Part shown: positions 1 to 38,971 of the stretch, one piece after another
Layout of the letters: the number at the start of each line of letters is the position of its first letter
Position numbering within the stretch: position 1 is the first letter of the stretch
NCBI GenBank assembly: GCA_025336685.1
Contig: GCA_025336685.1_4717.1
Direction: 5' to 3' (one strand)
Source: Escherichia coli
Lineage (GTDB): Bacteria > Pseudomonadota > Gammaproteobacteria > Enterobacterales > Enterobacteriaceae
DNA: 64,000 nt
Program-made: the position numbers and the translations under genes
The notes under the pieces: model-generated
What the model was told of the DNA's origin: nothing
The model's database searches: none
The model's input: only the letters and a program-made list of their open reading frames with translations

Positions 1-3000
1 GTTGATGCACAAGGTAACGTCGTACTTACGCTTGCCGACATGCAGAAAGGACTCGTCGATAAATACGGTAAAGCGATTCGTCGTTTAAAAGAAAAGCTCA
101 TCAACTTCGGTGTAAAAGCTTTTACGTTACCGTTAACCTTACTACGCAAGACAAAGGACATCCTTAAAACCCTTCCAGGTAAAACCGTTAACGGCCTACG
201 ACGGATGGGATTAAATTTCCAATCACCTGACGCATTATTGGTGGGAACAACGTCGAGCATGGTAGATCGTCTCGATGCTATTTACCAGCTCCTTGACCAA
301 CGTATGCCTGGTGGTGATAGGGATTATCGCGATTGGAATGGAGATGGCGTTCGAGAAGGATCGTTGGAAGACCTGAAACGTAAGCGTGCAGCCAAGGAAA
401 ACGGTAAGGATGACACTGGCAAAGATTCTAATAAAGGAGAAGAAAAGGAGAAGAAACGAGGATTACTCGGAAGCCTTTTCGATATGCTTGGCGACACCGC
501 ATTAGGTAAACGCCTCATGGCGAGTCCGCTTGGAAAAATTCTAGGTGGTCTTGGAGCGGTGTTAAGCGGCGGTGCATCGTTAACCGGGTTGTTAGGCAAA
601 GGCCTCATTAGTGGAACCGGCGCGCTGGTCAAGGGGGGACTAAGTGCGGCAGGATGGTTAGGACGTGGTGCGTTAATGGCGGGCGGGGCTGCATTGAACG
701 CTGTTGGTGGGTTATCGGGATTAGGTGCATTCCTCATCTCACCTGTTGGGCTTGCTATTGCTGGCGGTGCATTGGCTGCTTATGCAGGATGGAAGATCTA
801 TCAGCATTTCGCTGAGAAGCCTGACCCGATGCAGAAGCTCCGTCTTATTGCATACGGTGCAAAAGGGGACGATAAAGACTTCAATAAGAAGCTGCTTGCG
901 ACAGAAACATACCTCACCGACCATGTGGTTATGACTGGGGATACCATCGGATTCGATCCGAAAGCGGATTCTGAAAAGATTCTCGAAATCTGGGAATTGT
1001 CCCTGGAAGATTCCGACCGAATGAACGAATGGAAACGCTGGTATCTGCATCGTTTTATTCCTGTTTTCGCTCGTGCGTACAAACTCTGGAAAGAGCATAT
1101 GCCGGACGAGAAGAAATACATGGAAATGGATAAATATCCGAACGGTGAGAACAAGGTGAAATGGTCGGAAGCGTTTATCTGGCCTTCCGATAGTCCTGAC
1201 GGTCCGTATTACGTCGAAGCTAACCCGTTGGGTTCTTCTGGTGCGACGCGTTATATTGCTGGTCAAGACGTCAAAACCTTGATGCTGAAACAACTCGAAG
1301 CCATCAAGAAAGAGTACCAGAATCAGATCAAACAATACTCTCATGATGAGGCTATTGCTGATTGGTCACGGATGTCTGACACACAACGTAAATCCGTTGC
1401 GCCTAACGCATTACGTGGTCAGAAAGCGTCGTTACGTTTTAACGATAAGCGTTACAACAGTGCTGGCGCTAAAGGACGACAGAAGCTTGACGCAACCGCT
1501 GTTATTGAAAGCGTAGACCGTCGTGGTAGGAAATGGGTTGCTGGCGGATACATCGACGAACTCACCAGTCTCCGTGTTCGCGCGTACGGTATTAAGGTTC
1601 CGTTGTTAAGTCAGATAAAAGTGCTGATGGAACTCGAAGACGCTGTAGAACCTGGCGTAGTCGCTGAAGGTAAAGGGGTTAAATACGGTGGCGATCTTGT
1701 CGCGCTCTACAAGAAATTCGCGACGAAGTTCGGAAGAGACGTTAACAGCAAGCAGGATCAGGATATCTGGTTTGCTTGGATGAACAACCGTTTCCTACCC
1801 GTCTTTTTAACCTATTACCAACACGTTAGCGACATGGGTGGTCAAGGACTTCTGTCCGACATGGTACAGAACCTGAAAGACAGCCAACGTTGGGAAATCG
1901 GTGAAGCACTTGTCGCAACGCAATACCGTGATGAGAAAGGTGCACTCCAGCCTGTATGGTCCTGGAATAGTTGTGGTTTCTCCGGTACTGAAGCTAACAC
2001 CACCAGCAGTTCAACAAAGAGCCAACTCGATCTGTTAAAAGAATATGCGGATAAAGAGAAGGTTCGTGAGAAGAACGCGGAAGCATCGCAAGAGGACACC
2101 GATAAATTATCGAAGATCCAAGAGCTGATGATGAAGCAGGCTGGGTACGAGAAGAAAGACGGTGTCTGGCAGAAGAAATCACGCATTACCGGTGGGATGA
2201 GTAACGCCGAAGCGAATTACAACCCCAATGGGAATAGGGTAGGTGCAAGCAGCTTTACTGCTTCGGCTACTTCCAGTGCTGGGTTGGGGTCAACCGGCGA
2301 TCTTACCGGATTGCCTAACATGGGCTTACAGAAACCTGCAACGGGACCAGGTCCTGAAGCTGGACGTCGTGCGCTTGTTAAATCCGCTGTGAAACGCGGT
2401 ATTACCGATCCAATGGAAATGGCGATGTTCCTTGCAAACATCGAACATGAATCGGGGAACTACAGTCACGTACGTGAGGGGAACTATAAGACACCAGAGC
2501 GTCTTAAACAGGTCTTCCCTTACAAATTCCGTGATGTGCAGGATGCCGCACAGACGATCAGCATGGGACCAGAAGCGGTATTCGAACGCGTGTATGGTAA
2601 TCGTAAAGACTTAGGGAACACGCAGAAAGGAGACGGGGCGAAGTATTTAGGACGCGGCTTCATTCAGGTTACCGGTAAAGCTAACTACGCTCGTCTGTCC
2701 AAGACCTTGAATAAGGATCTTGTCAGCGATCCGACATACCTGGAAACGCCGGAAGGTGCGGCGGAAGGTAGTGTCGCGTGGTGGCTCAACCGAGGTAACG
2801 TATTACGCGATCCCGCAAAACGGGGTGACGTACGCCAAGTTCGTTATCTGGTTAACGGTGGTTATAACGGATTACGTGACGTTGAACAGCGCTCTGCTTA
2901 TTGGATTCAGGCGGCTAAGAACGGCACCCTGAAGAAAATGATGGACGAGTTATCGGGGTCAACATCAGACGATCAAGCTGAAGGACCGACCACCGCCGAA

Positions 3001-3534
3001 CAGGTGAAGAATGAAGCGGCCCAAGAGGCGAACGGAACACCGACGGTAAGCAACGATCCGCAAGCCCCGGCATCTTCTACCACCCCTGAAGCTAAACCGT
3101 CTGCGGCTGCCGGTACGGCTCCAGCACCCGGAGAAGCATCACCAACGCCTGTAAGTTTCGAGACAGCAAAAGCTACGGCAGGACAACCGACATCAACTCC
3201 GGCACTTAGCGATTTGCCGTCAAACCCTGGTGCAAATCGAGGGATATCGGTTCCGAATACGCCTGCACAGGTCGCGCAGTCTGCGACACAAACATCGGCT
3301 GCGAGTGAGAACTTCTACGGTAGCGCAGGTGAAATTCTCCGACAGCAGCTGACCACGCAGCAGAACATCGAGAAGAACACCGGTAGAACGAATGAACTTA
3401 TTTCGGAATTAATCCAAGCCGTTAAGGGTTCTTCTATCGGTAAGGGTTCTGCAAGTCCTTCTCAACAACAGGCGATGTCGCTACCTAATCGTCCGCAAGG
3501 AATCTCTCCAACACGGACAAGGTACGCGCAGTAG
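1..3534 (+). CDS. Giant virion-associated protein with internal GH19 lysozyme/chitinase-like domain (5'-partial; frame is open to the window edge)
   Basis: ORF open from nt 1 in the same frame as the track ORF 40..3534. FLAN-x2-HESG and YLGRGFIQVTG motifs at about nt 2380-2930 match glycoside hydrolase family 19. Gly/Ala-rich hydrophobic segment at about 480-800; Pro/Thr/Ala-rich linker at about 2960-3300. Confidence 0.7.
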   Translation, partial: VDAQGNVVLTLADMQKGLVDKYGKAIRRLKEKLINFGVKAFTLPLTLLRKTKDILKTLPGKTVNGLRRMGLNFQSPDALLVGTTSSMVDRLDAIYQLLDQRMPGGDRDYRDWNGDGVREGSLEDLKRKRAAKENGKDDTGKDSNKGEEKEKKRGLLGSLFDMLGDTALGKRLMASPLGKILGGLGAVLSGGASLTGLLGKGLISGTGALVKGGLSAAGWLGRGALMAGGAALNAVGGLSGLGAFLISPVGLAIAGGALAAYAGWKIYQHFAEKPDPMQKLRLIAYGAKGDDKDFNKKLLATETYLTDHVVMTGDTIGFDPKADSEKILEIWELSLEDSDRMNEWKRWYLHRFIPVFARAYKLWKEHMPDEKKYMEMDKYPNGENKVKWSEAFIWPSDSPDGPYYVEANPLGSSGATRYIAGQDVKTLMLKQLEAIKKEYQNQIKQYSHDEAIADWSRMSDTQRKSVAPNALRGQKASLRFNDKRYNSAGAKGRQKLDATAVIESVDRRGRKWVAGGYIDELTSLRVRAYGIKVPLLSQIKVLMELEDAVEPGVVAEGKGVKYGGDLVALYKKFATKFGRDVNSKQDQDIWFAWMNNRFLPVFLTYYQHVSDMGGQGLLSDMVQNLKDSQRWEIGEALVATQYRDEKGALQPVWSWNSCGFSGTEANTTSSSTKSQLDLLKEYADKEKVREKNAEASQEDTDKLSKIQELMMKQAGYEKKDGVWQKKSRITGGMSNAEANYNPNGNRVGASSFTASATSSAGLGSTGDLTGLPNMGLQKPATGPGPEAGRRALVKSAVKRGITDPMEMAMFLANIEHESGNYSHVREGNYKTPERLKQVFPYKFRDVQDAAQTISMGPEAVFERVYGNRKDLGNTQKGDGAKYLGRGFIQVTGKANYARLSKTLNKDLVSDPTYLETPEGAAEGSVAWWLNRGNVLRDPAKRGDVRQVRYLVNGGYNGLRDVEQRSAYWIQAAKNGTLKKMMDELSGSTSDDQAEGPTTAEQVKNEAAQEANGTPTVSNDPQAPASSTTPEAKPSAAAGTAPAPGEASPTPVSFETAKATAGQPTSTPALSDLPSNPGANRGISVPNTPAQVAQSATQTSAASENFYGSAGEILRQQLTTQQNIEKNTGRTNELISELIQAVKGSSIGKGSASPSQQQAMSLPNRPQGISPTRTRYAQ

Positions 3535-3544
3535 TCATTAGTTA

Positions 3545-3572
3545 AGGGCGGGAGATTCCCGCCCTCTTCTTG
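3545..3572 (+). terminator. Terminator-like hairpin AGGGCGGGA-GAT-TCCCGCCCT followed by CTTCTTG
   Basis: 9-bp GC-rich stem directly after the stop of the giant gene; the T-tract is weak. Confidence 0.45.
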
Positions 3573-3583
3573 AGGAATGTTAC

Positions 3584-4141
3584 ATGGGTATTCTTGTTCA
3601 AAACGCCCTAATCACCAAACAGGCGTTTTTATTACCTGGCGATAGCAGCACGCTGAGTGCCGACATGATTAAAGCGAGACATACACCGTATTCCTACGAT
3701 AACGTCGATGATACCACCTTAGGCGGGAACTGGGTGCTTAACCCACCACCGCAATATACGAAATTTGCCGACATCAAAGAACGGCGACGTGCGGTTATGC
3801 CGGGATCAACGGGCATGGGCCGAGGCTATAGTGAAAGCATTAACAGCTTTAAAGAAGTCGTTACGTTACGATTCGGTAAACCTCGCTTTACAGGCGCAAG
3901 TATCTTCTTTACCGATTTCTACGATGCGGATGTTGCCGTAACGGTTAAAACCGGTCGCGATCCCGGTATTCTTTATTACGCAGCCAAAGCGTATACCACC
4001 GTTCTTTCTTACCTCACGCCTCTACCTTACCTGTATATGGTTGACGTATCGGTCGATATTTCCCGGGTAAGCCTACCAGTCAATATTACTATCAAGTACC
4101 AACCATGCACGTGTATTGGGCGTCTTTCCAGACGCTGGTAA
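3584..4141 (+). CDS. Hypothetical protein (185 aa)
   Basis: ATG preceded by GAGGA 7 nt upstream; follows the terminator-like hairpin after the giant gene. Confidence 0.5.
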   Translation: MGILVQNALITKQAFLLPGDSSTLSADMIKARHTPYSYDNVDDTTLGGNWVLNPPPQYTKFADIKERRRAVMPGSTGMGRGYSESINSFKEVVTLRFGKPRFTGASIFFTDFYDADVAVTVKTGRDPGILYYAAKAYTTVLSYLTPLPYLYMVDVSVDISRVSLPVNITIKYQPCTCIGRLSRRW

Positions 4142-5724
4142 ACCAAACAGCGATAAACATGGGTCTTATCGCCGGTGCTGGTAAAGATAAAGGCTATGTG
4201 GAAGAAGGGGGTACCGTACTCCACCAATATTCAATCGGTGGCCAGAACGTTGAAGAATTCATCAACTACGCCTCTAAGACGCTACCGGGGATTTATAAGA
4301 AAGGTGGTGGGATCGATATCTACCAGATTGCAACACGTCGTCAGCGTATACAAAACGCATGGGTACGTCGTATTCAATCCATGATGGAAAACGATTACTC
4401 GTCTTACGAGGAGTTCTGGAACGATCTTGATAAACGACTTGATAGCGGAGCATTTCCATCGGATGTAACCGGTCGTACGTTAACGCAGTATCTCGCCGAC
4501 ACACAGAAGTCTGCTGTTTACAGTGCGACAGCTGGTGATAATAAACAAACGATGGACGACCTTTTATTCGGAAGGGCCTCATACACCAACAAGGATGCTG
4601 ATGCCAACTTCAAAGTCTCGGCGGCTACCTCCGACGGTGGTACGTCAACACAGAGTCAGGGTACAACAGCCAATGTCGGTAATTCGACATCAGGGACAAC
4701 GCAGGCTGCAACAGCAGCATCGACGGCTGGAGGTGCGAACGTACAGAGCAAAGGGATCGGTCAAACAAATGCGGCCGAGGAAGCTACGTTTCTTGATCTG
4801 ATGGATGCTGAACTGGCTGACGGTGCTCAGTTTATCAGTTTTCGAGTCGATTCTGTCACCAGCGTAACCGAAACGTTTTCAAACAGCGCTTCAGAAAGTT
4901 CAATCGCACAGACGATGAATAGCCGCGCGCAAGCGAACATCGAACGTCGTTTCACCCTCTCCGGTGGTAATACAGGTTGGGCTGTACTAGACGAAGCCAT
5001 CAAAGCCGGTTCCGATCTCGTCAATGGTGCTATTTCCGGGATGGGTCTGGATGGTATTTTTGGTGCCTTCATGGGTTCCGGATTCGCTGACATTCCGAAA
5101 TTCTATTCTGGGTCGTCAGTAAGTCTACCGCGTGCCGATCTGATGATGGAATTGCGTTCCTGGAGTGGGGACCGCTGGTCGATCTTTACGAACCTCATGG
5201 TACCTCTTTTAGCTATCCTCGCAGGTGGCTTACCTCAGGCTACCGGTAAATCGTCCTACGGGATGCCGTTCATGTGTGAGTGTTATATTCCAGGTAAAGT
5301 CCAGATTAAAATGGGTCTTATCGATAACATCACTGTGACGCGTCATGTTGGAAACGTACCATCGACACGCGAACGATTACCGTTGGGCATCGATGTCAGC
5401 TTCAGCGTTTATGACCTATCGTCCATCGTCGCAATGCCGATCACAACGACAGCTGCATCGATCGCAAAATTAGATCCTCGCGGCTTCTTAAGTGATCTTC
5501 TTGCTGATGATACTCCGCTCAACAACTATCTTGCTGTATTATCGGCATTGACACTTACGGAACAAGTTTACATGATTCCTGATTTAAGTCGTCGCATGCA
5601 TAAAACCATGGCCGATATCGATAGTTTCTGGAGCAAAGGTAATTTTGCTAGCTGGTTGTCTGACACCATGCCAGGCAGGATAGCATCAGGGCTGTTATGG
5701 AAACGTACAGAACGACCGTTCTGA
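4105..5724 (+). CDS. Hypothetical protein, possibly structural (start uncertain; alternative ATG at 4159)
   Basis: Long ORF with Ser/Thr/Gly-rich low-complexity stretch; no motif recognised. Confidence 0.5.
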   Translation: MHVYWASFQTLVNQTAINMGLIAGAGKDKGYVEEGGTVLHQYSIGGQNVEEFINYASKTLPGIYKKGGGIDIYQIATRRQRIQNAWVRRIQSMMENDYSSYEEFWNDLDKRLDSGAFPSDVTGRTLTQYLADTQKSAVYSATAGDNKQTMDDLLFGRASYTNKDADANFKVSAATSDGGTSTQSQGTTANVGNSTSGTTQAATAASTAGGANVQSKGIGQTNAAEEATFLDLMDAELADGAQFISFRVDSVTSVTETFSNSASESSIAQTMNSRAQANIERRFTLSGGNTGWAVLDEAIKAGSDLVNGAISGMGLDGIFGAFMGSGFADIPKFYSGSSVSLPRADLMMELRSWSGDRWSIFTNLMVPLLAILAGGLPQATGKSSYGMPFMCECYIPGKVQIKMGLIDNITVTRHVGNVPSTRERLPLGIDVSFSVYDLSSIVAMPITTTAASIAKLDPRGFLSDLLADDTPLNNYLAVLSALTLTEQVYMIPDLSRRMHKTMADIDSFWSKGNFASWLSDTMPGRIASGLLWKRTERPF

Positions 5725-5740
5725 TATTCACTGCATAAAC

Positions 5741-5772
5741 CCCTCTCCCTTCCCTGATGGGTTGGGAGAGGG
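5741..5772. terminator. Family hairpin CCCTCTCCCTTCCC-TGAT-GGGTTGGGAGAGGG at a convergent junction
   Basis: 14-nt arms with a TT/TT mismatch; between 4105..5724 (+) and 5779..6846 (-). Confidence 0.55.
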
Positions 5773-5778
5773 AATATG

Positions 5779-6846
5779 TTAACCTAATGTCACCGTAGGT
5801 AAATCAGGATAAAGTTTCTTCAAGCCTGCCATCGTGGTGGTAGTTGTATAATTCTTACCCATCACAGCAAGAGATGCATATTTCTTACTGCGGGAGAAAA
5901 GGGAATAAAACCCACTGGATGTTTCCATCCACATCGTGAGGAGTTCTGCGTCGTTACCGTGATAGTTCGTTTTACCCCATCCAGGTTTAAACGCATCGGC
6001 AAAATCAATTAAACGCGATGCTTCGGCGTCGTATTCTTTAAGGGTAATGTACGATGGGATACGGTAGTTACGAAACAACAACGTAATGAGTTCAGGGACA
6101 ACGCTACGAGCGCGTTCAGCCGTAATGAGTTCGGTGATAACGGCAGCCGTACGGAAATCGCCGTTGAGGCCAACGCTGCTTAACGATTCCGCTAAAGTGG
6201 TTGCCATCGCCACTTTATCCTCCGCTGACCCAGAGTCATACAGACTACGTACATCGATATAGTTGCCTGCTAATGCGGCTTGACGAATCAACGACGTGAC
6301 AACCGTCCGGTTCGTCTTATAGTCGTTGTAGCTGAATTCGGTTCGCGTTTTCCCTTGATCGTCGAGATACCGATCGACAATCGTTGATAGTTTATAATAC
6401 TCATCGCCCGACATCAGACTATCGAGGAGCTTAACGTTTCCATCTTTATCGATAAGCTTCCCTAACGCACCATTGGATTGTTGGTTAATGGTGCTGTAAA
6501 TCTGATCTTTTACTTGCGATAGGATGTTATCAGTCGACGATATATTCAGACCAGTAACATCTTTGATCTTATTCATCAACGCGTTTTCATTCAGGGAGAT
6601 TTTGCCTCCGCTGATATCGATGAAAGAATTAAGATCGCTTATGGAAATCAGGTTTCCTGTTAACGCCGATAATGTACTATTGATACTGTTCGTAATACTG
6701 CTACGAAAACTGGTTAACGCATCCGCGGCCGAAACAGCGGTACCGCTAACCGCTTTAAGGAGCGTGTCGCGCCCTGTCGAAAAATCGCTGGTGATGGTTT
6801 TGATCTTGGACGTATCTATACTCGGCAGTTTGTCGTAAAGACTCAT
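5779..6846 (-). CDS. Hypothetical protein (start moved to ATG at 6846)
   Basis: AGGAGG 5 nt upstream of ATG (MSLYDKL) on the minus strand; the track start at 6897 gives an unlikely hydrophobic leader. Confidence 0.55.
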   Translation of the reverse strand: MSLYDKLPSIDTSKIKTITSDFSTGRDTLLKAVSGTAVSAADALTSFRSSITNSINSTLSALTGNLISISDLNSFIDISGGKISLNENALMNKIKDVTGLNISSTDNILSQVKDQIYSTINQQSNGALGKLIDKDGNVKLLDSLMSGDEYYKLSTIVDRYLDDQGKTRTEFSYNDYKTNRTVVTSLIRQAALAGNYIDVRSLYDSGSAEDKVAMATTLAESLSSVGLNGDFRTAAVITELITAERARSVVPELITLLFRNYRIPSYITLKEYDAEASRLIDFADAFKPGWGKTNYHGNDAELLTMWMETSSGFYSLFSRSKKYASLAVMGKNYTTTTTMAGLKKLYPDLPTVTLG

Positions 6847-6928
6847 CACGTCCTCCTGAAAAAGAAAAAAGAAATACGGCATAAAGCCTACCCACACAAT
6901 GGTGGGTAGGCTAAGATCAACATCGATG

Positions 6929-7441
6929 TTAAACTTCTTCGTTTTCTGAACCTAATGATTCAGCATCTGGATCGTCAACAGGAATTGTTGCGTCAAAATA
7001 CCGTTTCGTATGCGTGGTCGTATATCCTACACTATCTGTGATGGAAATCGTAAACGTGACTTCTCTCGCACGGATTAAGCGTAGTTTATTCATGAAGTTA
7101 CGGAACGGCATCGATCCCCGATTCAACTCCTTAATGACGTTTCCTCGAATACTGGAAATGTCTTTATTCGTTTTATCAGGATGTCGTTTCTTCACATCAC
7201 GCATATGTCGGGTAATATACGAATTGAGCTGATTTGCGCCGATCCCTCTCTCCGTATAAATCTGCAACAGGAACTCCGTAAGGAAATCCTGTCTACCCGT
7301 AGGCGTCCAGAAATTGTTACCGTGATTGTAGTTAGTCGCTCGTCCTCGATTACTTTGAGGATTTTCATCATCGTTTTCGTCACAACGCTTAAGCGGATTA
7401 ATGCGTGCTCGGAAAGAGACTTCATTATATTTATTTGTCAT
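6929..7441 (-). CDS. Hypothetical protein (start moved to ATG at 7441)
   Basis: ATGA stop/start overlap with the upstream gene 7438..7953 suggests translational coupling. Confidence 0.5.
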   Translation of the reverse strand: MTNKYNEVSFRARINPLKRCDENDDENPQSNRGRATNYNHGNNFWTPTGRQDFLTEFLLQIYTERGIGANQLNSYITRHMRDVKKRHPDKTNKDISSIRGNVIKELNRGSMPFRNFMNKLRLIRAREVTFTISITDSVGYTTTHTKRYFDATIPVDDPDAESLGSENEEV

Positions 7442-7953
7442 AATACACCAGTGTACTGACTGAGTGCGAAGGTTAGGAGTTCGCAACAGTCTCTCGCTAG
7501 TTTCCTTGTTTTGCGTAATCCATAAGCCGCATCCAAATCGTCACGTTCTGCCAGCGCGTCTAACCACGTCGCAAGTATGCGTCCATACTCGATAACGTCA
7601 CGCATGAGAACGTCGAACTGGATAACACGACCATCGGCATCAGCAAGCCAACGATTGAATGTGATTTGTGGTGCTAGTATTGCATATGTTCTCTCCTCTA
7701 ATGCTATTATGTTTATGTTGCCTTCGTTATCGAACGCTTGATGCCAACGGCGAAGGTCAAGCATCAACGACTCAGCGTCCATATACCACAACGGTAAATA
7801 CGTTTTACGTGCAACGCGTATATCGTAGATGTTGTGAACCCAGGACGTTGTTTTATAAAGCAACAAGAGTTCGTTTAACCGTTGCCTATCATCTTGAAAC
7901 GTCTTCCTTTTATAACGTTGGAATGCACGCCTCAAGAAAAAGCGATGTAACAT
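7438..7953 (-). CDS. Hypothetical protein (171 aa)
   Basis: ORF in a co-directional minus-strand block; divergent from 8087..8716. Confidence 0.5.
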   Translation of the reverse strand: MLHRFFLRRAFQRYKRKTFQDDRQRLNELLLLYKTTSWVHNIYDIRVARKTYLPLWYMDAESLMLDLRRWHQAFDNEGNINIIALEERTYAILAPQITFNRWLADADGRVIQFDVLMRDVIEYGRILATWLDALAERDDLDAAYGLRKTRKLARDCCELLTFALSQYTGVL

Positions 7954-8033
7954 GGCATCACCTATGTATCATTCTTGCAGGCATCAATGAAACCATCACA
8001 AGAAGGTAACGTTATACGTCGCCTCCATGACAG

Positions 8034-8054
8034 TCATCATGAAGGTAATATAGT
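8034..8054 (+). promoter_or_regulatory. Conserved 21-mer CATCATGAAGGTAATATAGTC (candidate promoter), about 32 nt upstream of the 8087 start
   Basis: Identical 21-mer recurs at 35790..35810; contains a TATAGT (-10-like) hexamer with ATGACA 16 nt upstream at this site. Confidence 0.45.
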
Positions 8055-8086
8055 CCTGTTATTTTTTTCAATACGGAGAATGTAAA

Positions 8087-8716
8087 ATGAGCGAATACGG
8101 TGTTGTCCCCGTAGATGATGAACCGCAAGAGGCACCCGATAAATTCGAGGTCCGTCTTGACGAAACCCGTAATATCCGTCAACGATTTATTCAACGTCTT
8201 GAAATGCTGTTAGATAGCGAATTCAAAGATTTTGAGCGTAACCCCGGTGTAGATAATAAAGCCATTGTTGACGTCGAAAACGTCGACCGAATAGGTAAGC
8301 TGTTGTTGAAATCGTTGGGTGATAACGATAAAGTCGACTTAACGTTGAAACGTATCAGCGCCGACCAGGCTATGAACGACAGCGCATTGAAAACAGCACA
8401 GGCCCTAACCGAAACCATGCTGCGCCGCTTAGGTCAGATAGATGAACATCCTCTCGCAGCAGGGGCTGTTTACGATGGCGAAGTCGTGAAGTCAGTTACG
8501 CCTGAAGAACGCGATCGTCGACTTGGTTTTGCATCGTTGGAAGAGTTTAATAGCAAGGAGTTTTCACCAGGCGTTCTCATCCAGGGACGTGTCGAAGAAA
8601 CCAGTGATGCTTTCTACGCTAGAATGGCTCAACTGACGGAGTCGGTTCGTGAGGAGGTGTCTCAGAAGATGGCTGCAGATCATCAGTCTTCGGAGGCGTC
8701 ACACGAGGAGGAATAA
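8087..8716 (+). CDS. Acidic hypothetical protein (209 aa)
   Basis: ORF downstream of the conserved motif; Glu/Asp-rich, acidic C-terminus. 3' end overlaps the convergent ORF 8619..9407 by about 98 nt. Confidence 0.5.
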   Translation: MSEYGVVPVDDEPQEAPDKFEVRLDETRNIRQRFIQRLEMLLDSEFKDFERNPGVDNKAIVDVENVDRIGKLLLKSLGDNDKVDLTLKRISADQAMNDSALKTAQALTETMLRRLGQIDEHPLAAGAVYDGEVVKSVTPEERDRRLGFASLEEFNSKEFSPGVLIQGRVEETSDAFYARMAQLTESVREEVSQKMAADHQSSEASHEEE

Positions 8717-9407
8717 AATAACTGAACCATTTTATCCCAAAGAACCGCATGAACATCACGGGTGCGTTAGAAAGTTCGATTGCTTCGTAAAGTTTGTCAT
8801 AAGCCAGATCGGAATCAGGGATGGTTTCGCTGATTCGTCTGGCGACAACCAACACGTTACAAATCGGATTATCTTCTAACAACATCTGATTGGGGAGGTG
8901 CCAGCGTTTGAAATCGTAAAAGAACATCGCGTTATACGTCTTACGGATTTCTGATGGATGCAGTGTGGCCGGATGACGGTAAATAATCTCGACGCTATCT
9001 TGCGCACCGAGGTATTGCTGAATACCTTCTTTTAACGCGGTCGCTGCATCTCCCACAAATTCAAACGGGTACGTATTCACGTGAACCGAAAAATCCGGCG
9101 TAGCAATCCCCGTTAAGCGGTCTTTCATGTAATCCGCGACCACATAACACAGCCGCCACATCAACTCCGTCGGGATGCATTTATCGAGAATGGTTTCGTC
9201 GATATTTGCCATCGCGTCCTTAAACTCTTCGTAAGTATAAGTAACGCCCGCCTGCTTCTCCGGCTCCAGGTTATAGGGTCGGTAATGCCATTTCTTCCCC
9301 CACTTTCTGATAGCCTCCGGATCCAACGTTGTTGCTACCGCCATTTCGATATCAAGCAGTGCTTCGAGTTCTACGTACACCGTCACCAATGCTACACTTC
9401 CAGTCAT
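8619..9407 (-). CDS. Hypothetical protein (262 aa)
   Basis: Long ORF abutting 9410..10111; Pro/Thr-rich C-terminus; overlaps the 3' end of 8087..8716. Confidence 0.5.
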   Translation of the reverse strand: MTGSVALVTVYVELEALLDIEMAVATTLDPEAIRKWGKKWHYRPYNLEPEKQAGVTYTYEEFKDAMANIDETILDKCIPTELMWRLCYVVADYMKDRLTGIATPDFSVHVNTYPFEFVGDAATALKEGIQQYLGAQDSVEIIYRHPATLHPSEIRKTYNAMFFYDFKRWHLPNQMLLEDNPICNVLVVARRISETIPDSDLAYDKLYEAIELSNAPVMFMRFFGIKWFSYFIPPRVTPPKTDDLQPSSETPPHEPTPSVEPF

Positions 9408-9409
9408 TG

Positions 9410-10111
9410 TTACTCTCCAGCTTCACCGGTTAACATCTGCATATCGGGAGACGTTTTAATTTTCTTCTCGTACTCTTTTGTTTGTTTGAATACCAATTCA
9501 CCGATTTCTTCCAATTCTTCAACGGTGACGGTATGCAAATAAAGCAGCGGAATAATCCAGGTATTCGCACGAAGCATGTCCTGAATATCGTCAACGGTGG
9601 GTAACTCCGTAAAGAACTGTTCGTCTACCGCAAATAAATCCCGTGCGATACCATCCACCAGTTTATGATCGCTTTCATGGATCCATGCAAAACTTTCAGC
9701 AAGATGGTCAACAAGCATACTGATGTCATCGTCCGTTGAGAACACCGTACGACGAACGTGTGTTGTGAGGTCCATCGTAAAACCCATTAACGAAGGGGTT
9801 TCTTCAGAACGGAGTTCACGCCAAAGACGAAGCATGTTTTCGGGGATAAACAAATCATGGATGAACGTTACGCTGAATTTCGTAATCCAATCACGAATTG
9901 TCGCACCTCTGGAATACTGTTGCGGTGGAGAATACAAATACACCCAACGTTTCGTAAACGCGATAACTTCCTTTCGCATCGCCGCATCTAAAACAAGCAC
10001 GTAACGATCGGAAGCAAGCTCTTCTAACAAAAGCTCGAACGATGTATCGCTCTCTGGGGAGAACGATCGTTTTATTTCTGCGATACGTCGTGATAGCCGA
10101 CTACGTAACAT
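9410..10111 (-). CDS. Hypothetical protein (233 aa)
   Basis: Tightly packed minus-strand ORF. Confidence 0.5.
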   Translation of the reverse strand: MLRSRLSRRIAEIKRSFSPESDTSFELLLEELASDRYVLVLDAAMRKEVIAFTKRWVYLYSPPQQYSRGATIRDWITKFSVTFIHDLFIPENMLRLWRELRSEETPSLMGFTMDLTTHVRRTVFSTDDDISMLVDHLAESFAWIHESDHKLVDGIARDLFAVDEQFFTELPTVDDIQDMLRANTWIIPLLYLHTVTVEELEEIGELVFKQTKEYEKKIKTSPDMQMLTGEAGE

Positions 10112-10113
10112 AA

Positions 10114-10788
10114 TTAGCCCTCATCAAGGTTATTCTGGAGATGCATTGCGGTGAGAATAACACCAACTGCCGAAACCGATTTTGCCTTGCTGTCTTCGGG
10201 TAGCTGTTCCAAGCTTACGGTACCTGTTTCTAACAGCATGCGGTTCATCGCGTTGAACTTCTTATCGTCGCCACCACGAGCCTGCATTAACTCTCGGTTC
10301 ACGTTCGGCATCGATCGTCCTAACGTCGCTTGCATTTCCGGCTGACTCCAAGTGGAACCTTTACTATCACCCGTCGGCTGATTGGTGAGCTGGTCCTTGG
10401 TGTTGTTGTTTTTCGGAATCGATATTTTAGCACTCAACGTTTCGGCTTGTCGGCGGTTTGGAATCAGGTACAATCTGGTTGGACGATCACGAAGCACCAA
10501 TTGTCCTGTTTTCTGATCGGTGAGATAAACGCGTTGGAAGAAAGGGAAACCGTATTTCTTGCCGACTTCCAGTGCGCGTTTTATCGTCACCTCGTTTTTG
10601 TTCATATTGGGTACCCAGATGGGTAGAATCTCTTTCTTATCCCGACATAAACGCATATACGCATCAAACGTCTCATCATCGATTTCAGCAAAACGTTTTT
10701 TGTAAATAGCGTAGGTCGGACTCGATCCCCCCACCAGGTCTTTGATATACCCAAGAATGAATTTTTCTGCTGCAGCGCGGTTGGACAT
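10114..10788 (-). CDS. Hypothetical protein (224 aa)
   Basis: Tightly packed minus-strand ORF; no motif recognised. Confidence 0.5.
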   Translation of the reverse strand: MSNRAAAEKFILGYIKDLVGGSSPTYAIYKKRFAEIDDETFDAYMRLCRDKKEILPIWVPNMNKNEVTIKRALEVGKKYGFPFFQRVYLTDQKTGQLVLRDRPTRLYLIPNRRQAETLSAKISIPKNNNTKDQLTNQPTGDSKGSTWSQPEMQATLGRSMPNVNRELMQARGGDDKKFNAMNRMLLETGTVSLEQLPEDSKAKSVSAVGVILTAMHLQNNLDEG

Positions 10789-10797
10789 AAACGTCTC

Positions 10798-11139
10798 CTA
10801 TTGTCGTGTCTGTTGCGGAAATACCCGAAACACCTGGACGATGATGTTCTTGTCCTCGCGATTGGCGATGTCGATCATGTGTTTTGTTCCAGGACTTTTG
10901 AAATCCCAGAACGCAACTAGATGCGTAATGACATCGCCCATCCACTCGTTGCGTCTGAATCCAGCACCTTTACGATAAGGGCCATCCCAATCGGCAGGAA
11001 ACGTAGTGTATTTAAACCCGTAATCCTTCGCATAGCGGCGCACATGCAAATCAGCACCTGAACGCGCACCGCCAGCAATGAGATGAACTTTGTCGTGAGG
11101 GAGGTTATGTAACATCTGGTTCATACGCTTTTCGAACAA
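10798..11139 (-). CDS. Small Rossmann-like protein, possibly SLOG/DUF2493-like
   Basis: HLIAGGARSGAD ... AFWD-x4-GT pattern resembles small SLOG-family (LOG/DprA-like) proteins; weak, motif-level only. Confidence 0.4.
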   Translation of the reverse strand: MFEKRMNQMLHNLPHDKVHLIAGGARSGADLHVRRYAKDYGFKYTTFPADWDGPYRKGAGFRRNEWMGDVITHLVAFWDFKSPGTKHMIDIANREDKNIIVQVFRVFPQQTRQ

Positions 11140-11192
11140 GGGATAATCATCCCAGTAGCGTGATCCTGATACCCCTACACGATAGGGTTCGC

Positions 11193-11513
11193 TTATCTTC
11201 CACCGCGCAATGACTTTACGTTGCGTGCAATAAAGGGTGCAACGTAATCACGGAAATTATGGATCCATCCTTTAATGGGTTGATTGTCTAGTAAGCACTC
11301 TCGCACCGAGAACGTACTTACTTCTAGTACACCGAACTGCAATCGCCAATAACGATTGATTTCGGCTTGGGCGTGTTCTAAAGTCATGTACTCAGGAACA
11401 CGAGCCAGCAGATCGTGTTTAAATTGCTCGGCAATCGCTGGCTGATGCGATGCAATTGTCTGTGCGATAACATCAACCAGTTCGTGCGCGTGCTTGATAG
11501 CAGGTGCGGTCAT
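11193..11513 (-). CDS. Hypothetical protein (106 aa)
   Basis: ORF between the SLOG-like gene and the RecA-fold ATPase gene. Confidence 0.45.
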   Translation of the reverse strand: MTAPAIKHAHELVDVIAQTIASHQPAIAEQFKHDLLARVPEYMTLEHAQAEINRYWRLQFGVLEVSTFSVRECLLDNQPIKGWIHNFRDYVAPFIARNVKSLRGGR

Positions 11514-11525
11514 TTATTCAGCCTT

Positions 11526-13016
11526 TTATTTTTTGCTTGGACGATTTAATGCAGGTACCGGGTTCTTTGGTTGCTTTGTCTTTTCATCCATCCAGTACGG
11601 GAAGTACTCACCGGTACGCATACGCAATAAGTCCATTGTGGACAAGAACGGTAGCGGGTTAGGATCATCCAGATATGTCCAGTAACCGCGTGTGTTTAAC
11701 AACACATCCCAATCGAATCCTTTTGCTTTAAGATCGTCGTACAGTTCCTGCGGGGTGCAATACAATTGCGGATTTTCGTAAACCTCTTGACGCCAGAGAT
11801 TATGCATCTGACATAGCTCCGACGTAATTTCCAGAGCACGCTGTAAATACTCATCTTCTTCGCAGAGGGAACGAATGGTTGTGCGCTGTAACGCAACATC
11901 CGGATAAATATCCAAATACACCGTTGAAGCACCATCAGCTGACTTACCACCTGATGCATGCATACCCCAACCACGCATCCAATCTTTATCACGTAGGTAG
12001 TGGTATTCTGTTAATGATGGTTTAACCCCCTCGCTCTGACTAACCACAATCGGGAACGGTAAGCCGGTGGGTCCGTTTTTAGCACGCATGTTGAAGACTT
12101 GGATCATCTGTAGATCGGTATCACCGATAAGGTTATCACCAGGTCCACGCGGATAAAGAACGCGTTTATCGGTGTTCTGAAGAATCGTCAGTTTATCGAT
12201 TTTCCAGAGGTTATTCGTATAAAACGTGAAGCGTTCCGGGACGTTCTTAAACTTCTCATCGCCCTTAAACCCTTTCAGTTTTCGTACCGGCTGCTGTCCT
12301 GGCATACCACCAACGTTTACACCGTCACCGAGGTGGGCGGTCATGGTAATGTAGATACCAGCTGACGCTGTGAGTACCGGCATCTGTGATAGAATCTGGC
12401 TTTTCGCTGCTGCCGAACGCATCGCTTCAGCATTCAGTTTTGCACCACCTGCGGTTTCTTTATCAAACAGTGCGTCAACGGCATCGATTGGTAATCCAGA
12501 GAAACTGTCGATGAGTACGACGGTCGGTAACCACCAGGTATAGTTCTCACCATGTTTATTAATGAACGGAACAGCTTTGCGTTGGGATTTATCTTTGACC
12601 TTGTCGTCACGGAATTTCTTAATCGCATCAAACCAAATGTTACCACTCATCTGAACAGCATCGGTGATAAACACACGTTCTTCTTCGAAAAGATCGACAC
12701 CCGCGATATTAGACATGTTCATCGCAAGCGTTAAGATACGTGTTGTCGTTAACGACATTTCTGTATCGTAAACGCTACTATTGCTGTTCGCGTAACGATC
12801 AATAACACGTAACAAGCGAAACATTATGAACGTGGTTTTGTTCATGTTGCCGCGAGCGCCTGCGCCCTCAACAAGCATCATACCGCCGTTACAAATGCTT
12901 TCACCGTGTTTACCGACATAGTACCGACCACCAGATGTGGGAATATCCATTAAGCAACCAATGTTGAGATTAAAACGCATCTCTTCACCGGGAGAAAGGT
13001 ACTTATTAAGATTCAT
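11526..13016 (-). CDS. RecA-fold ATPase (UvsX/RecA-like recombinase or DnaB-like helicase core) with about 200 aa C-terminal extension
   Basis: Walker-A-like GARGNMNKTT near the N-terminus; VVLIDSFSGL Walker-B-like strand followed by KLNAEAMRSAAAKSQ, resembling the RecA/UvsX VVFIDSLGNL...TRAKTMKSL region. Confidence 0.5.
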   Translation of the reverse strand: MNLNKYLSPGEEMRFNLNIGCLMDIPTSGGRYYVGKHGESICNGGMMLVEGAGARGNMNKTTFIMFRLLRVIDRYANSNSSVYDTEMSLTTTRILTLAMNMSNIAGVDLFEEERVFITDAVQMSGNIWFDAIKKFRDDKVKDKSQRKAVPFINKHGENYTWWLPTVVLIDSFSGLPIDAVDALFDKETAGGAKLNAEAMRSAAAKSQILSQMPVLTASAGIYITMTAHLGDGVNVGGMPGQQPVRKLKGFKGDEKFKNVPERFTFYTNNLWKIDKLTILQNTDKRVLYPRGPGDNLIGDTDLQMIQVFNMRAKNGPTGLPFPIVVSQSEGVKPSLTEYHYLRDKDWMRGWGMHASGGKSADGASTVYLDIYPDVALQRTTIRSLCEEDEYLQRALEITSELCQMHNLWRQEVYENPQLYCTPQELYDDLKAKGFDWDVLLNTRGYWTYLDDPNPLPFLSTMDLLRMRTGEYFPYWMDEKTKQPKNPVPALNRPSKK

Positions 13017-13114
13017 TGGGTAAAAACTCCTTCGATTCTTCGACTAATTCTTAGTGTTCAGAGAATAACTATTTTTAGTTAAGACTGACAACCACTATTT
13101 CCACGAGGACCATC

Positions 13115-13957
13115 ATGCATAAATTTACCATTCCTGAAGACCCGATTACACTGCAGACCCTTTGGGATTCTCATCGTGCTCTATCAATGGAAGGCTTTGC
13201 GCAAGACTTCGCTTCACTTACCGCAGTAACGAATCTTCGTAGTATGTTTACTAACGGTAAGAAGTTCGTTACCGATTGGCTTAAAAAACGTGATGTGACG
13301 GTTTATCCTAAAGTCTTCGATGACCTCGATACCATCTTTAGCAACAACGCATACAGCGATCTCATTGGGTATCGTGCTTTTATTCCGAATGGTTTAAATG
13401 CACCGATGTCAGATTATGTTGTTGCTCTAACCCAGAGCCTGGATAGCGTAATTGGCACCATCCTACCCGATTTAGATAAATTGACCGTAACGTGCGCTAA
13501 AGCCGTCAATGACGTCAACTTCCGTCGTAGTAGTGGTATGGCTCAAACGCTACCTAAAAACGACCCAGAGAACGTTTTAGAGACGTTACGTGCGATGTTC
13601 AAACGTGGGACGGTAACACAGACCACTGTAGGTCGTGCATATAAGAACGAAGACGATATCCGTCAGATCGGAAAAGATCTGGATGCTTCCCGCATCCGTG
13701 CGCTCGACGTTAATCCTAAAGACGTGAAGAAAGCAATCGAACGTTTCATGGAAGTGGCTGACCGCTTAACCGAAATCCTGGTTCAAGACTACAATGAGGG
13801 TGCGGTGAGCAACGCGATGATTCGCGATATTAGTGACGCTATCTACCAAACAGCCAAGCAGGCTGAACTGTATGCGTTTCTCGTGAACGCTTTGGCTGAG
13901 GCGATCATTGCATATAACGACACTTGGGACGCTGTTAAAAAGAACGCGAAAAAATAA
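13115..13957 (+). CDS. Hypothetical protein (280 aa)
   Basis: ORF with GAGGA upstream of ATG; followed by a bulged hairpin. Confidence 0.5.
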   Translation: MHKFTIPEDPITLQTLWDSHRALSMEGFAQDFASLTAVTNLRSMFTNGKKFVTDWLKKRDVTVYPKVFDDLDTIFSNNAYSDLIGYRAFIPNGLNAPMSDYVVALTQSLDSVIGTILPDLDKLTVTCAKAVNDVNFRRSSGMAQTLPKNDPENVLETLRAMFKRGTVTQTTVGRAYKNEDDIRQIGKDLDASRIRALDVNPKDVKKAIERFMEVADRLTEILVQDYNEGAVSNAMIRDISDAIYQTAKQAELYAFLVNALAEAIIAYNDTWDAVKKNAKK

Positions 13958-13965
13958 CATAATAA

Positions 13966-14001
13966 CCCACCCTACTACCCCGTTAAGGGCGGTAGGGTGG
14001 G
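13966..14001. terminator. Hairpin at convergent junction (CCCACCCTAC...GTAGGGTGGG), likely bidirectional terminator
   Basis: About 10-bp GC-rich outer stem plus inner CCC/GGG stem; sits between convergent genes 13115..13957 (+) and 14009..14440 (-). Confidence 0.5.
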
Positions 14002-14008
14002 ATAAGGT

Positions 14009-14440
14009 TTATTTGCCGTATAGTTGTACCACTCGTTGTGTCGTAGGAACGCAGACTCTTACCAGAAGCTTTTTAATCTCCTGACGAATCGTTGTTTTAT
14101 CATCATAATAAAGCCATGGTGGAACGCGCTGCATTATGCACTGCACCGCTTCATCGTAGTTTGTCGTCCCATTAAGTAACGTCTCACTATCCAGATCTTT
14201 CCATGCAGTAATACCAAGCCGCGCAGCAAACATCAACGCCGAAACCGACTCAGCTATCTCCAATCGCTCATTCATATCCGCAAGACCTTTTAGCATGACG
14301 TAATTATCGTCATGTTGGTGCAAGGTACCAAACAAACTTCCGAAGAGAAGTATACGTTTAGCTTTTGCGGTTAAGAAGAACGATAGGAGAGCGTGTTTCA
14401 ACGGTTGTTTCTCACGTTCTACCTGTTCGACCATCACCAT
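14009..14440 (-). CDS. Hypothetical protein (143 aa); weak nucleotidyltransferase-like GS-x2-G-x5-DD motif
   Basis: FGSLFGTLHQHDD loosely resembles the Pol-beta-type NTase GS...D.D motif, but the second acidic residue is misplaced. Confidence 0.4.
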   Translation of the reverse strand: MVMVEQVEREKQPLKHALLSFFLTAKAKRILLFGSLFGTLHQHDDNYVMLKGLADMNERLEIAESVSALMFAARLGITAWKDLDSETLLNGTTNYDEAVQCIMQRVPPWLYYDDKTTIRQEIKKLLVRVCVPTTQRVVQLYGK

Positions 14441-14537
14441 TGATTACTCCAACACATAACGTGGGTTACTGTATATGTTAGCCCATATACCAACGTCGTC
14501 TCCCGACTCAATAATCACAGCGAAACGAAACGCAACA

Positions 14538-15980: not shown

Positions 15981-16018
15981 TAATCATTGTCCGTATGATA
16001 GCCCAAAGTTGTACGGTA

Positions 16019-16570
16019 TTACCGATTACCGTCAGTTGACGTTGGTTGATTGCGATCGATTTTCATTGACCGTAATTTTCCACCATTAGTTACACACTGA
16101 TTGCGCTGTTCGACGGAGGCCAGACTGTTACAGACATAATAAGTATCGATAAAACGCTCAACGCGTTCTTGAAACTTCCTCCTGGCAACTTGCTCTTTTT
16201 CAAAAGTTTGTAACGCGCGATCGACCTCACCTTGGAGAATCCGGTTCTGTTCAACCATACTGTCGATTAAACGGCCTCGCACTTCGTTCGATGTGTAGAG
16301 TTGATGAATCAGTTCTCGGTTGGTGTCTCGCGCATAGCGCAATGTTGTATTTTCCTGACGTAAACTATTCGCCTCAGCCATCAAGGTAAAGATTTTTTCG
16401 CCAGCAAATAACGTCACGATACCCAGCACGATGAAAAAACCCGTAATCAAGAATATCGAGGACTGTCGAGCTCCATCTCGACGATAGCGTGTGGGTGGTC
16501 GCTTACTTCGCCGAAACAACTCGCGAAGAAAAGGGAAAAGCCAGGGCAACGCCTTGAGTGTAGTAAACAT
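16019..16570 (-). CDS. Predicted membrane protein with coiled-coil (start moved to ATG at 16570)
   Basis: Hydrophobic segment IFLITGFFIVLGIVTLFAG; the track start at 16861 would overlap the divergent gene 16589..17965 by about 270 nt. Confidence 0.45.
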   Translation of the reverse strand: MFTTLKALPWLFPFLRELFRRSKRPPTRYRRDGARQSSIFLITGFFIVLGIVTLFAGEKIFTLMAEANSLRQENTTLRYARDTNRELIHQLYTSNEVRGRLIDSMVEQNRILQGEVDRALQTFEKEQVARRKFQERVERFIDTYYVCNSLASVEQRNQCVTNGGKLRSMKIDRNQPTSTDGNR

Positions 16571-16588
16571 GCGTGTGTCCTTGATAGT

Positions 16589-17965: not shown

Positions 17966-17967
17966 TT

Positions 17968-18594: not shown

Positions 18595-18600
18595 CATATT

Positions 18601-18633
18601 CCCTCCTCCTTCCCATGTTGGGTTGGAGGAGGG
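18601..18633 (+). terminator. Hairpin CCCTCCTCCTTCCC-loop-GGGTTGGAGGAGGG, member of a recurring hairpin family
   Basis: 14-nt arms with a central TT/TT mismatch, immediately after the stop of 17968..18594. Confidence 0.55.
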
Positions 18634-18647
18634 TTATGCCGTCAAGC

Positions 18648-38335: not shown

Positions 38336-38971
38336 TTATTCAACACTGAAACCGTTCAAACAGATGGCTTCGTAACGTTTACGTTCACGGCGTTTGCGTG
38401 CCTGCCAACCGTAAATGAACTTCTCGTCTTTCTCACGACGTTCCGCTAATTCGATGTAATAGGTGCTCTGCATGTCCAGCATTGCATCGATGAGATAATC
38501 CTTACCGGTTGCGCCACGCTTAGCGATGTAGGCATCAAGAGCCGCCAGTGTTTTGGGACCCATTGCGCCATCAGCGTCGATATTTTTCCAGTAAGTTTGG
38601 CGGTTGTTCATGACGTTCAGATAACGCTGAAGGTTCTTAACCGGTACGGTTTTGCCTGCGTTGATACCCAGGTCAAAGAGACGATCAGCCAAGAACACGG
38701 AACGTTTCATGACCTCATCAAGCTTCATCTTATCCCAGAAGTGGGTCTTGTAGATGAAGAACGCCATTTCCGTGGTAAGGTTACGCATATTACCGTCCCA
38801 CCCGAATTTCGTTTTCAGCGTGGTTTTGTACTGATCCGCAAGCGCTTTCGTAATGCCGTGGTTCGTGATCCCACCAGAGTCATCGGGATCGTCGACGTAA
38901 CCTGCTTCGATGCTAGTTTTATCACGAATGATAAATTCGCAAGTAAAATCTTTTTCAGTAATCTTGGCCAT
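38336..38971 (-). CDS. Endolysin: GH108-family lysozyme with C-terminal peptidoglycan-binding (PG_binding_3-like) domain
   Basis: N-terminal IEAGYVDDPDDSGGITNHGIT matches the GH108 E...GGY.DDP.D.GG.T..GIT signature; C-terminal half resembles PG_binding_3. Confidence 0.7.
   Translation of the reverse strand: MAKITEKDFTCEFIIRDKTSIEAGYVDDPDDSGGITNHGITKALADQYKTTLKTKFGWDGNMRNLTTEMAFFIYKTHFWDKMKLDEVMKRSVFLADRLFDLGINAGKTVPVKNLQRYLNVMNNRQTYWKNIDADGAMGPKTLAALDAYIAKRGATGKDYLIDAMLDMQSTYYIELAERREKDEKFIYGWQARKRRERKRYEAICLNGFSVE

Follow-up and report, generated by a model that had tools for sequence, protein, structure and literature searches.

The back half of a giant tail protein with a predicted GH19 peptidoglycan-hydrolase module in a Goslar-like chimallivirus

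Gp181 of phage phiKZ is a structural peptidoglycan hydrolase (Briers et al. 2008, as cited in PMC5380687), and the lytic fragment of this structural lysin has an activity of 60,000 U/mg on permeabilised P. aeruginosa (PMC5380687). The protein is essential, no insertions were found in the 6,714 bp of its gene, and a tape-measure role was proposed earlier for phiKZ orf181. When virions of Escherichia phage Goslar were analyzed by liquid chromatography-tandem mass spectrometry, the Goslar orthologue, a protein of 249 kDa listed as "Tail protein," was represented by 34 peptides (24% coverage) at 3.4 to 8.0 copies per particle (bioRxiv 10.64898/2026.04.21.720040). Here, we describe the corresponding gene at the start of a 64,000-nucleotide (nt) stretch of DNA, referred to as the window (contig GCA_025336685.1_4717.1 of the Escherichia coli assembly GCA_025336685.1). 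Judged by its sequence, the region from position 1 to 3534 is the back half of the giant tail peptidoglycan hydrolase of a Goslar-like chimallivirus, an orthologue of phiKZ gp181.

Frame 1 of the plus strand is uninterrupted from the first base to a stop codon at 3532-3534, giving 1,177 codons, and the first ATG of this open reading frame (ORF), at nt 40, would give a product of 1,164 amino acids (aa). A preliminary description of the window, made without database searches, had called the ORF longer than 1,164 aa and truncated at its 5' end. This proved correct, since the window edge cuts a gene whose Goslar orthologue spans 6,759 nt and encodes 2,252 aa (record positions 8776-15534; Goslar_00232, QBO64023.1 in GenBank; gp204, YP_009820915.1 in RefSeq). 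Residue i of the window protein corresponds to Goslar residue i+1075; the ~1,075 codons of the N-terminal part precede the window, and the part within it, measured against the 2,252 aa of the orthologue, is the C-terminal 52% of the protein. The two sequences align without gaps over all 1,177 aa and are 95.8% identical in nucleotides and 98.1% identical in amino acids. The 147 nucleotide differences comprise 124 synonymous and 23 nonsynonymous changes (ratio of nonsynonymous to synonymous substitution rates [dN/dS], 0.05) and amount to 22 amino acid substitutions, none of them at invariant positions of the enzyme module described below. Because these gapless differences are mostly synonymous, window 1-3534 is a real protein-coding gene under strong purifying constraint. 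In a megablast search of a 50,697-record phage collection, Goslar was the sole relative of the window.

The preliminary description had read the catalytic core of glycoside hydrolase family 19 (GH19) from two motifs, FLANIEHESG (aa 810-819, nt 2428-2457) and YLGRGFIQVTG (aa 882-892, nt 2644-2676), and this assignment was upheld by both sequence and structure. A phmmer search of the PDB sequences retrieved the GH19 phage endolysins 9EOI, 7R6S, 9MS6/7, 4OK7, and 8P8E at E values of 1e-17 to 2e-23, while GH19 chitinases were matched weakly. The module has 479 homologues at E<=1e-10, nearly all of which carry PF00182, and the window protein is matched by PHROG 181 (endolysin) at an E value of 2e-53. 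A scan of the fragment against NCBIfam returned nothing meaningful. The AlphaFold2 (AF2) model of the module, built from a 65-sequence alignment, is all-alpha and confident over aa 784-983 (mean predicted local distance difference test score [pLDDT], 89.2; predicted template modeling score, 0.80). When this model was compared with the PDB by Foldseek, the top 50 matches were all GH19 proteins, with peptidoglycan-lytic enzymes ranked before chitinases. By sequence, fold, and catalytic pair, the module belongs to the phage endolysin-type subgroup of GH19. A Goslar-type GH19 module is predicted to cleave beta-1,4 glycosidic bonds in peptidoglycan, and aa ~784-984 are a candidate enzybiotic domain.

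Two glutamates of the module had been described as conserved, and this requires a partial correction. E817, in the HES motif, and E826, in VREGNY, are invariant among the aligned homologues, align with the HES glutamate and the second glutamate of 4OK7 and 9EOI, and are kept alongside the GRG, TG…N, and NGG motifs; we take E817 and E826 to be the general acid/base pair, as in GH19 enzymes at large. E815 of IEHES, by contrast, varies. Since E815 is not conserved and E826 lies in VREGNY, the second target for mutagenesis falls outside the quoted motif. The construct suggested earlier for expression (nt 2380-2930) would cut off the first and last helices of the folded module, which extends over nt ~2350-2952.

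A 161-aa fragment (P0001) that is 100% identical to the GH19 module (window 2320-3060) sits on a 484-bp contig at NCBI under the name [quoted passage not shown] Phage of this exact type thus occurs, by contamination or carry-over, in one E. coli assembly or more.

The larger family to which the protein belongs was delimited with profile and pairwise searches. The window part and the Goslar N-terminal half both match phrog_3201, a family of 2,408 positions (E values of 1e-129 and 1e-157, respectively); a Pfam scan of the Goslar N-terminal half gave no match. By blastp, Goslar aa 66-724 and 918-1761 are collinear with phiKZ gp181 aa 46-704 and 931-1765 (E values of 4e-45 and 4e-36), and the body of the window protein, aa 269-783, is homologous to phiKZ gp181 aa ~1340-1765. 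A tblastn search with the body found matches in 160 jumbo-phage records. An exhaustive HMMER search with aa 270-780 collected 541 cluster representatives, almost all of them 2,100 to 2,700 aa long and matching at the same relative position.

We compared the enzyme slot in 12 chimallivirus loci (Goslar, phiKZ, PhiEaH1, Totoro, EL, Ea35-70, pVp-JHP1101, FBKp24, RTH11, RSL2, PCH45, and PS119XW). GH19 occupies the slot in five of the 12 isolates (Goslar, Ea35-70, PhiEaH1, EL, and RSL2), and in the remaining seven that position holds an SLT-type lytic transglycosylase. Among 139 full-length family representatives, 110 have SLT, 19 have GH19, no protein combines the two, and 10 lack both; on average, SLT lies at 0.863 and GH19 at 0.864 of the protein length. 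As this sample is biased toward relatives of Goslar, GH19 is over-represented if anything. A Pfam scan of eight of the 10 proteins with neither enzyme identified Peptidase_M23 in P0167 and P0239, VanY in P0223, a GH73 glucosaminidase in P0259, and no domain in the slot of the remaining four, and M23 motifs were seen by eye in a ninth protein, P0240. The four proteins with no match are among P0191, P0211, P0232, P0256, and P0270, of which P0211 lay outside the scan, and these five may carry further cassette types. The enzyme slot thus behaves as a cassette in which wall hydrolases are exchanged while its place, ~0.86 of the way along the protein, stays fixed. Since enzymes that cut different bonds of one polymer share one slot, selection appears to act on local peptidoglycan cleavage and not on one chemistry. 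Separately, P0256 and P0270 have the motif GKYQ(F/I)I in common, which is suggestive of another lysozyme-like fold.

That the giant protein is a virion component, as the preliminary description had proposed, is supported through the orthologue found in purified Goslar particles, which is 98% identical to the window protein (bioRxiv 10.64898/2026.04.21.720040). At least four of the Goslar peptides could be located, at Goslar aa 424, 770, and 1000 in the N-terminal half and at aa 2133 in the C-terminal linker; both halves of the protein are therefore present in particles. Digestion of peptidoglycan at injection is likewise supported, by orthology to the muralytic phiKZ gp181 (PMC5380687). The setting of the gene is constant: in all 12 chimalliviruses, genes for beta subunits of the virion RNA polymerase (vRNAP) on the minus strand are followed by the giant gene on the plus strand (2,039 to 2,553 aa) and then by a plus-strand spacer gene of 620 to 780 aa. 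The product of this downstream gene forms a hexameric ring between tail tube and hub, which in Goslar (gp203) is part of the "tail tube initiator complex" and in phiKZ (gp182) is called the "spacer" (bioRxiv 10.64898/2026.04.21.720040; PMC13250141). The giant gene thus has the adjacency to tail tube and hub genes that is expected of a tape measure protein (TMP). No frameshifted chaperone pair was found upstream of it, because the upstream genes encode vRNAP subunits on the other strand. The features of the locus are listed in Table 1.

Table 1. Features of the giant gene and of other window loci discussed in the text (positions are window coordinates; residues are those of the window protein)
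Feature	Position	Residues	Strand	Evidence or remark
Giant tail protein gene, C-terminal 1,177 codons plus stop	1..3534		+	Orthologue of Goslar gp204/Goslar_00232 and phiKZ gp181
Charged, mostly helical stretch continuing the N-terminal half	1..465	1-155	+	AF2 helices at 11-100, pLDDT ~55-75; composition
Gly/Ala/Leu-rich hydrophobic segment	466..804	156-268	+	Kyte-Doolittle 19-mer maximum, 1.91; 25 small-xxx-small motifs
Family-defining body, predicted mostly helical at low confidence	805..2349	269-783	+	tblastn, blastp, AF2
GH19 peptidoglycan-hydrolase module (predicted)	2350..2952	784-984	+	phmmer, homologues, AF2 model, Foldseek; dN/dS against Goslar, 0.009
Codon of E817, first catalytic glutamate (HES motif)	2449..2451	817	+	Invariant in 65/65 and 60/60 aligned homologues
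Codon of E826, second catalytic glutamate (E-x8-E spacing)	2476..2478	826	+	Invariant; aligns with second Glu of solved GH19 endolysins
Pro/Thr/Ser/Ala-rich disordered linker	3031..3312	1011-1104	+	Composition; pLDDT <50, without secondary structure
Conserved C-terminal amphipathic helix	3313..3426	1105-1142	+	AF2 pLDDT ~70-75; alignable in 12 orthologues
Gly/Ser-rich tail ending Pro-hydrophobic-x-x-basic (…GISPTRTRYAQ)	3427..3531	1143-1177	+	Comparison of 12 orthologues
Hairpin AGGGCGGGA-GAU-UCCCGCCCU	3545..3565		+	11 nt past the stop of the giant gene; fold -21.9 kcal/mol, z -2.5
Orthologue of Goslar gp203/phiKZ gp182, spacer or tail-tube-initiator ring	3584..5724		+	Split into two ORFs
Candidate endolysin, 211 aa, Glyco_hydro_108 plus PG_binding_3	38336..38971		-	Both domains above Pfam gathering scores

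The Gly-rich hydrophobic region and the Pro/Thr-rich linker of the preliminary description were both recovered. Of the 113 residues in the hydrophobic segment, Gly accounts for 29, Ala for 19, and Leu for 23; aa ~231-264 are strongly transmembrane-like, and the segment has a dN/dS of 0.026 against Goslar. From its composition, it is a candidate membrane-inserting region. Such a segment recurs in the family: across the 139 representatives, the median position of the most hydrophobic 19-mer is 0.586 of the length (interquartile range, 0.571 to 0.605), its median Kyte-Doolittle (KD) value is 2.04, and the most Gly- and Ala-rich 80-mer has 51% Gly plus Ala at the median. A mid-protein segment with a KD value of >1.4, at 0.57 to 0.59 of the length, is present in 134 of the 139. 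In the linker, Pro, Thr, and Ser make up 0.44 of the richest 75-aa block, and its dN/dS of 0.095 is the highest among regions with enough substitutions for an estimate. After the enzyme, all 12 orthologues share the same layout of a low-complexity linker, an amphipathic helix, a Gly/Ser-rich stretch, and a terminal Pro-hydrophobic-x-x-basic motif. The helix can be aligned in all of them irrespective of the type of enzyme carried, and it is a candidate docking element.

Over the last 67 codons (window 3331-3531), the synonymous substitution rate (dS) against Goslar falls to 0.02, with one synonymous change where ~7 would be expected from the dS of ~0.15 to 0.24 in other regions of the giant ORF. 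This could be due to chance, to a recent recombination tract, or to nucleotide-level constraint near the gene junction.

The best overall explanation of these data, and one that we consider probable, is that the giant protein is a low-copy, tail-core-associated virion lysin that acts at infection. In the mechanism that we propose, three or six copies would be built into each virion and housed inside the unusually wide (~68 Å) lumen of the tail tube, with the C-terminal helix and tail anchoring the protein to the hub/spacer complex encoded by the next gene. Upon sheath contraction, the spike would open the outer membrane and the giant protein would be first out of the tube. GH19, through E817 and E826, would then make local cuts in the glycan strands, letting the tube or a DNA conduit through the wall, and the Gly/Ala-rich segment might insert into the inner membrane and help to form the DNA passage. 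The parts of this scheme are not equally secure. A place in the tube lumen is somewhat favored; there, three to six copies would fill 13 to 26% of the volume by our estimate. The protein is unmodeled in both the Goslar and the phiKZ virion structures, which fits a symmetry-mismatched occupant of the lumen. For ejection and membrane insertion the balance is even, and a role as length ruler is doubtful.

Several results weigh against this explanation or against parts of it. Neither of the electron cryomicroscopy (cryo-EM) studies directly localizes the giant protein in the tube lumen, and in both phages much of the peripheral baseplate has yet to be assigned, leaving room for it there (bioRxiv 10.64898/2026.04.21.720040; PMC13250141). 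When the whole fragment was scored directly with Pfam, PF00182 gave a partial match of 19.4 bits, compared with a gathering score of 25.5. Matches to TMP families of PHROG were weak (phrog_1533, E value of 2e-5, in the Gly-rich low-complexity segment; phrog_1506, E value of 3.5e-3), and Pfam detected no TMP domain in the fragment. The estimated 3.4 to 8 copies and the mainly helical AF2 prediction would suit a low-copy, helical protein, but outside GH19 the full-fragment model, computed there without an alignment and used for secondary-structure tendencies only, has a pLDDT of <60. The length of the protein is also a poor match to the tube. At 1.5 Å per residue, 2,252 aa would span ~338 nm, whereas the Goslar tube measures 188 nm and needs just ~1,250 of the 2,252 aa. 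The Goslar and phiKZ tubes (46 x 39.2 Å and 43 x 37.7 Å, respectively) are ~18 nm apart in length, yet the two collinear giant proteins have a length difference of 15 aa. This comparison is crude; it uses the cryo-EM geometries of two phages, published tail lengths from negative stain being sparse, and a subregion could still be a ruler. A simple ruler is not supported and is the weakest part of the reading. The earlier suggestion of a tape-measure-type protein therefore stands in part: it is plausible and had been proposed for phiKZ orf181, but simple length scaling fails.

Other placements of the giant protein in the particle were considered alongside the tail-core lysin. Chimalliviruses package and inject many proteins, and T7 gp16 and its relatives join a muralytic domain with membrane activity (PMC5380687), so the giant protein might be an ejected internal protein that is stored in the capsid or neck, as T7 gp16 is, and that, once ejected, cleaves the wall and reaches across the envelope. 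Its absence from both virion models would suit such storage. However, in all 12 genomes the giant gene is the immediate upstream neighbor of the tube/hub spacer gene, a count of 3 to 8 copies is typical of tail-core proteins, the Goslar mass spectrometry table assigns the product to the tail, and the GenBank record of phiKZ labels gp181 a "tail-associated endolysin" while its neighbors gp178 and gp180 are head proteins. We regard capsid or neck storage as unlikely. A peripheral-baseplate component or fiber whose enzyme acts on a surface polymer would account for the family label "tail fiber protein" in RefSeq and PHROG, would fill some of the unassigned baseplate, and would match C6 symmetry at ~6 copies. 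The enzymes found in the slot (SLT, GH19, M23, VanY, and GH73) nevertheless all target peptidoglycan, which lies under the outer membrane and beyond the reach of the baseplate rim, and a conserved transmembrane-like segment is hard to square with an exposed fiber. Pfam and PHROG scans found no beta-helix, collagen, or receptor-binding domains, and the identified filament proteins of Goslar belong to another family, DUF7941. A baseplate or fiber role is thus quite improbable.

The original reading of phiKZ gp181, listed in older literature under "needle-like cell-puncturing device" and as a putative trimer (PMC5380687), has been superseded because in the cryo-EM models different proteins form the spike, tip, and hub, namely, Goslar gp13 and gp48 and phiKZ gp164, gp163.1, and gp101. 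In the Goslar study and the phiKZ structural atlas, the spacer, initiator, and wedges are also other proteins (bioRxiv 10.64898/2026.04.21.720040; PMC13250141), and we consider a needle very improbable. The GenBank label would make the product a chitinase, in keeping with the annotation of the domain as COG3179 ("predicted chitinase") and with GH19 being known best for chitinases, and a GH19 enzyme could also be the lysis endolysin of the phage. Both ideas have next to no likelihood, given that the nearest relatives in sequence and structure are peptidoglycan-lytic phage endolysins and a type VI secretion system (T6SS) effector, that the orthologous slot carries SLT, M23, VanY, or GH73 in relatives, and that this is a 249-kDa virion protein in a phage with another endolysin. 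That second enzyme had been noted in the preliminary description as separate from the GH19 protein, correctly so: the product of 38336-38971 matches Glyco_hydro_108 and PG_binding_3 and, from these domains, is likely the lysis endolysin. The needle, tail-fiber, chitinase, and endolysin readings were rejected on the strength of the cryo-EM assignments, the cassette, the hydrophobic segment, and the separate GH108 endolysin.

The tail-core lysin would gain a further role if the ejected protein, once inserted in the inner membrane, nucleated or shaped the vesicle of early phage infection (EPI), derived from the inner membrane, that takes in the chimallivirus genome; its hydrophobic segment might then do more than make a pore. 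This idea is speculative and improbable; if true, the family would be the virion factor with which the vesicle-to-nucleus pathway begins. Neither gp181 nor a tape measure is mentioned in the phiKZ atlas, the core-genome paper on chimalliviruses, the papers on the EPI vesicle, or a 2026 jumbo-phage review. The giant gene, essential in phiKZ, is the largest gene that nucleus-forming jumbo phages carry, and yet its product is absent from both near-complete virion structures. The cassette exchange and the near-universal hydrophobic segment provide handles for learning how these phages get through the envelope and bring their DNA into a membrane vesicle.

Downstream of the giant gene, the hairpin at 3545-3565 has a 9-bp GC-rich stem that is identical in Goslar, with a different loop, and precedes the ribosome-binding site of the next gene (GAGGAA, 3572-3577). 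It was not called by a strict terminator scan because its T-tract is too short. The spacer gene that follows is split into ORFs at 3584-4141 and 4105-5724 by a 1-nt deletion relative to Goslar after nt 4042 (GGTTGGACG to GGTT-GACG), unlike Goslar gp203, an essential protein with a single coding sequence of 713 aa. An error in sequencing or assembly is the likeliest source of the deletion, which otherwise reflects a defective genome or an unrecognized frameshift. Pfam matched neither of the downstream ORFs. From 3535 to 18661 and beyond, the window is collinear with Goslar (95.4% identity) to the end of the linear Goslar record and then resumes elsewhere in it; the start points of the two genomes therefore differ, consistent with a circularly permuted genome. 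In the whole 64 kb, ARAGORN found no tRNA genes and Rfam found no family at its gathering threshold.

The two labels attached to the Goslar gene, GenBank's "putative chitinase" and RefSeq's "tail fiber protein," are probably both misnomers, and the PHROG label has spread to many jumbo-phage records. GH19 versions of the gp181 family had already been annotated in EL and the Erwinia phages ("lysozyme domain," COG3179). The interpretation in the preliminary description was right, and what it describes is already known and ordinary for this phage family; it is not new, because the gene is nearly identical to an annotated, virion-detected Goslar gene of the known gp181 family.

Compared with free-standing enzymes, the module has the same fold as the SPN1S endolysin (4OK7), the P. 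aeruginosa enzyme 9EOI, KTN6 gp46 (8P8E), and the T6SS effector TseP (8XCL), with TM-scores of 0.57 to 0.66 normalized to the 247-aa query, and shares with them the E-x8-E pair and the GRG…TG…N and NGG motifs. The free-standing GH19 endolysins and TseP are soluble enzymes of ~200 aa that act at lysis from within or as toxins, whereas the window-type module is embedded in a structural protein of 2,252 aa, at residues 1859-2059. Classical TMPs offer a second comparison. Pb2-like tape measures resemble the giant protein, as we read it, in being long and helical, with a hydrophobic segment, a C-proximal muralytic domain, few copies, and action at the start of infection. Phage T5 Pb2 itself has a peptidase-type domain and belongs to a noncontractile tail, and a ruler function is proven for classical TMPs, unlike for the phiKZ gp181 family. 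Beyond the weak PHROG matches, Pb2-type TMPs have no detectable homology to the giant protein. Pb2 is listed among the tape measure proteins with lytic and membrane-active parts (PMC5380687).

Within the family, EL gp183, Ea35-70 gp161, PhiEaH1 gp147, and RSL2 ORF039 are orthologous giants with GH19 in the same slot, from phages of Pseudomonas (EL), Erwinia (Ea35-70 and PhiEaH1), and Ralstonia (RSL2). Their bodies are just ~22 to 26% identical to that of the window protein, and EL gp183, at 2,543 aa, has a longer tail past the enzyme. Closest of all is Goslar gp204, which has the same neighbors and is annotated COG3179; the window differs from it in the 1-nt deletion of the downstream gene. 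PhiKZ gp181 differs from the window protein in carrying an SLT-type lytic transglycosylase (GH23-like) instead of GH19 and in its less hydrophobic mid-segment, with no KD 19-mer of >1.3. It is otherwise like Goslar gp204, with 2,237 aa compared to 2,252 aa, a collinear body, the same gene neighborhood, an enzyme at ~0.86 of its length, a Gly/Ala-rich mid-segment, and the same architecture of C-terminal helix and tail.

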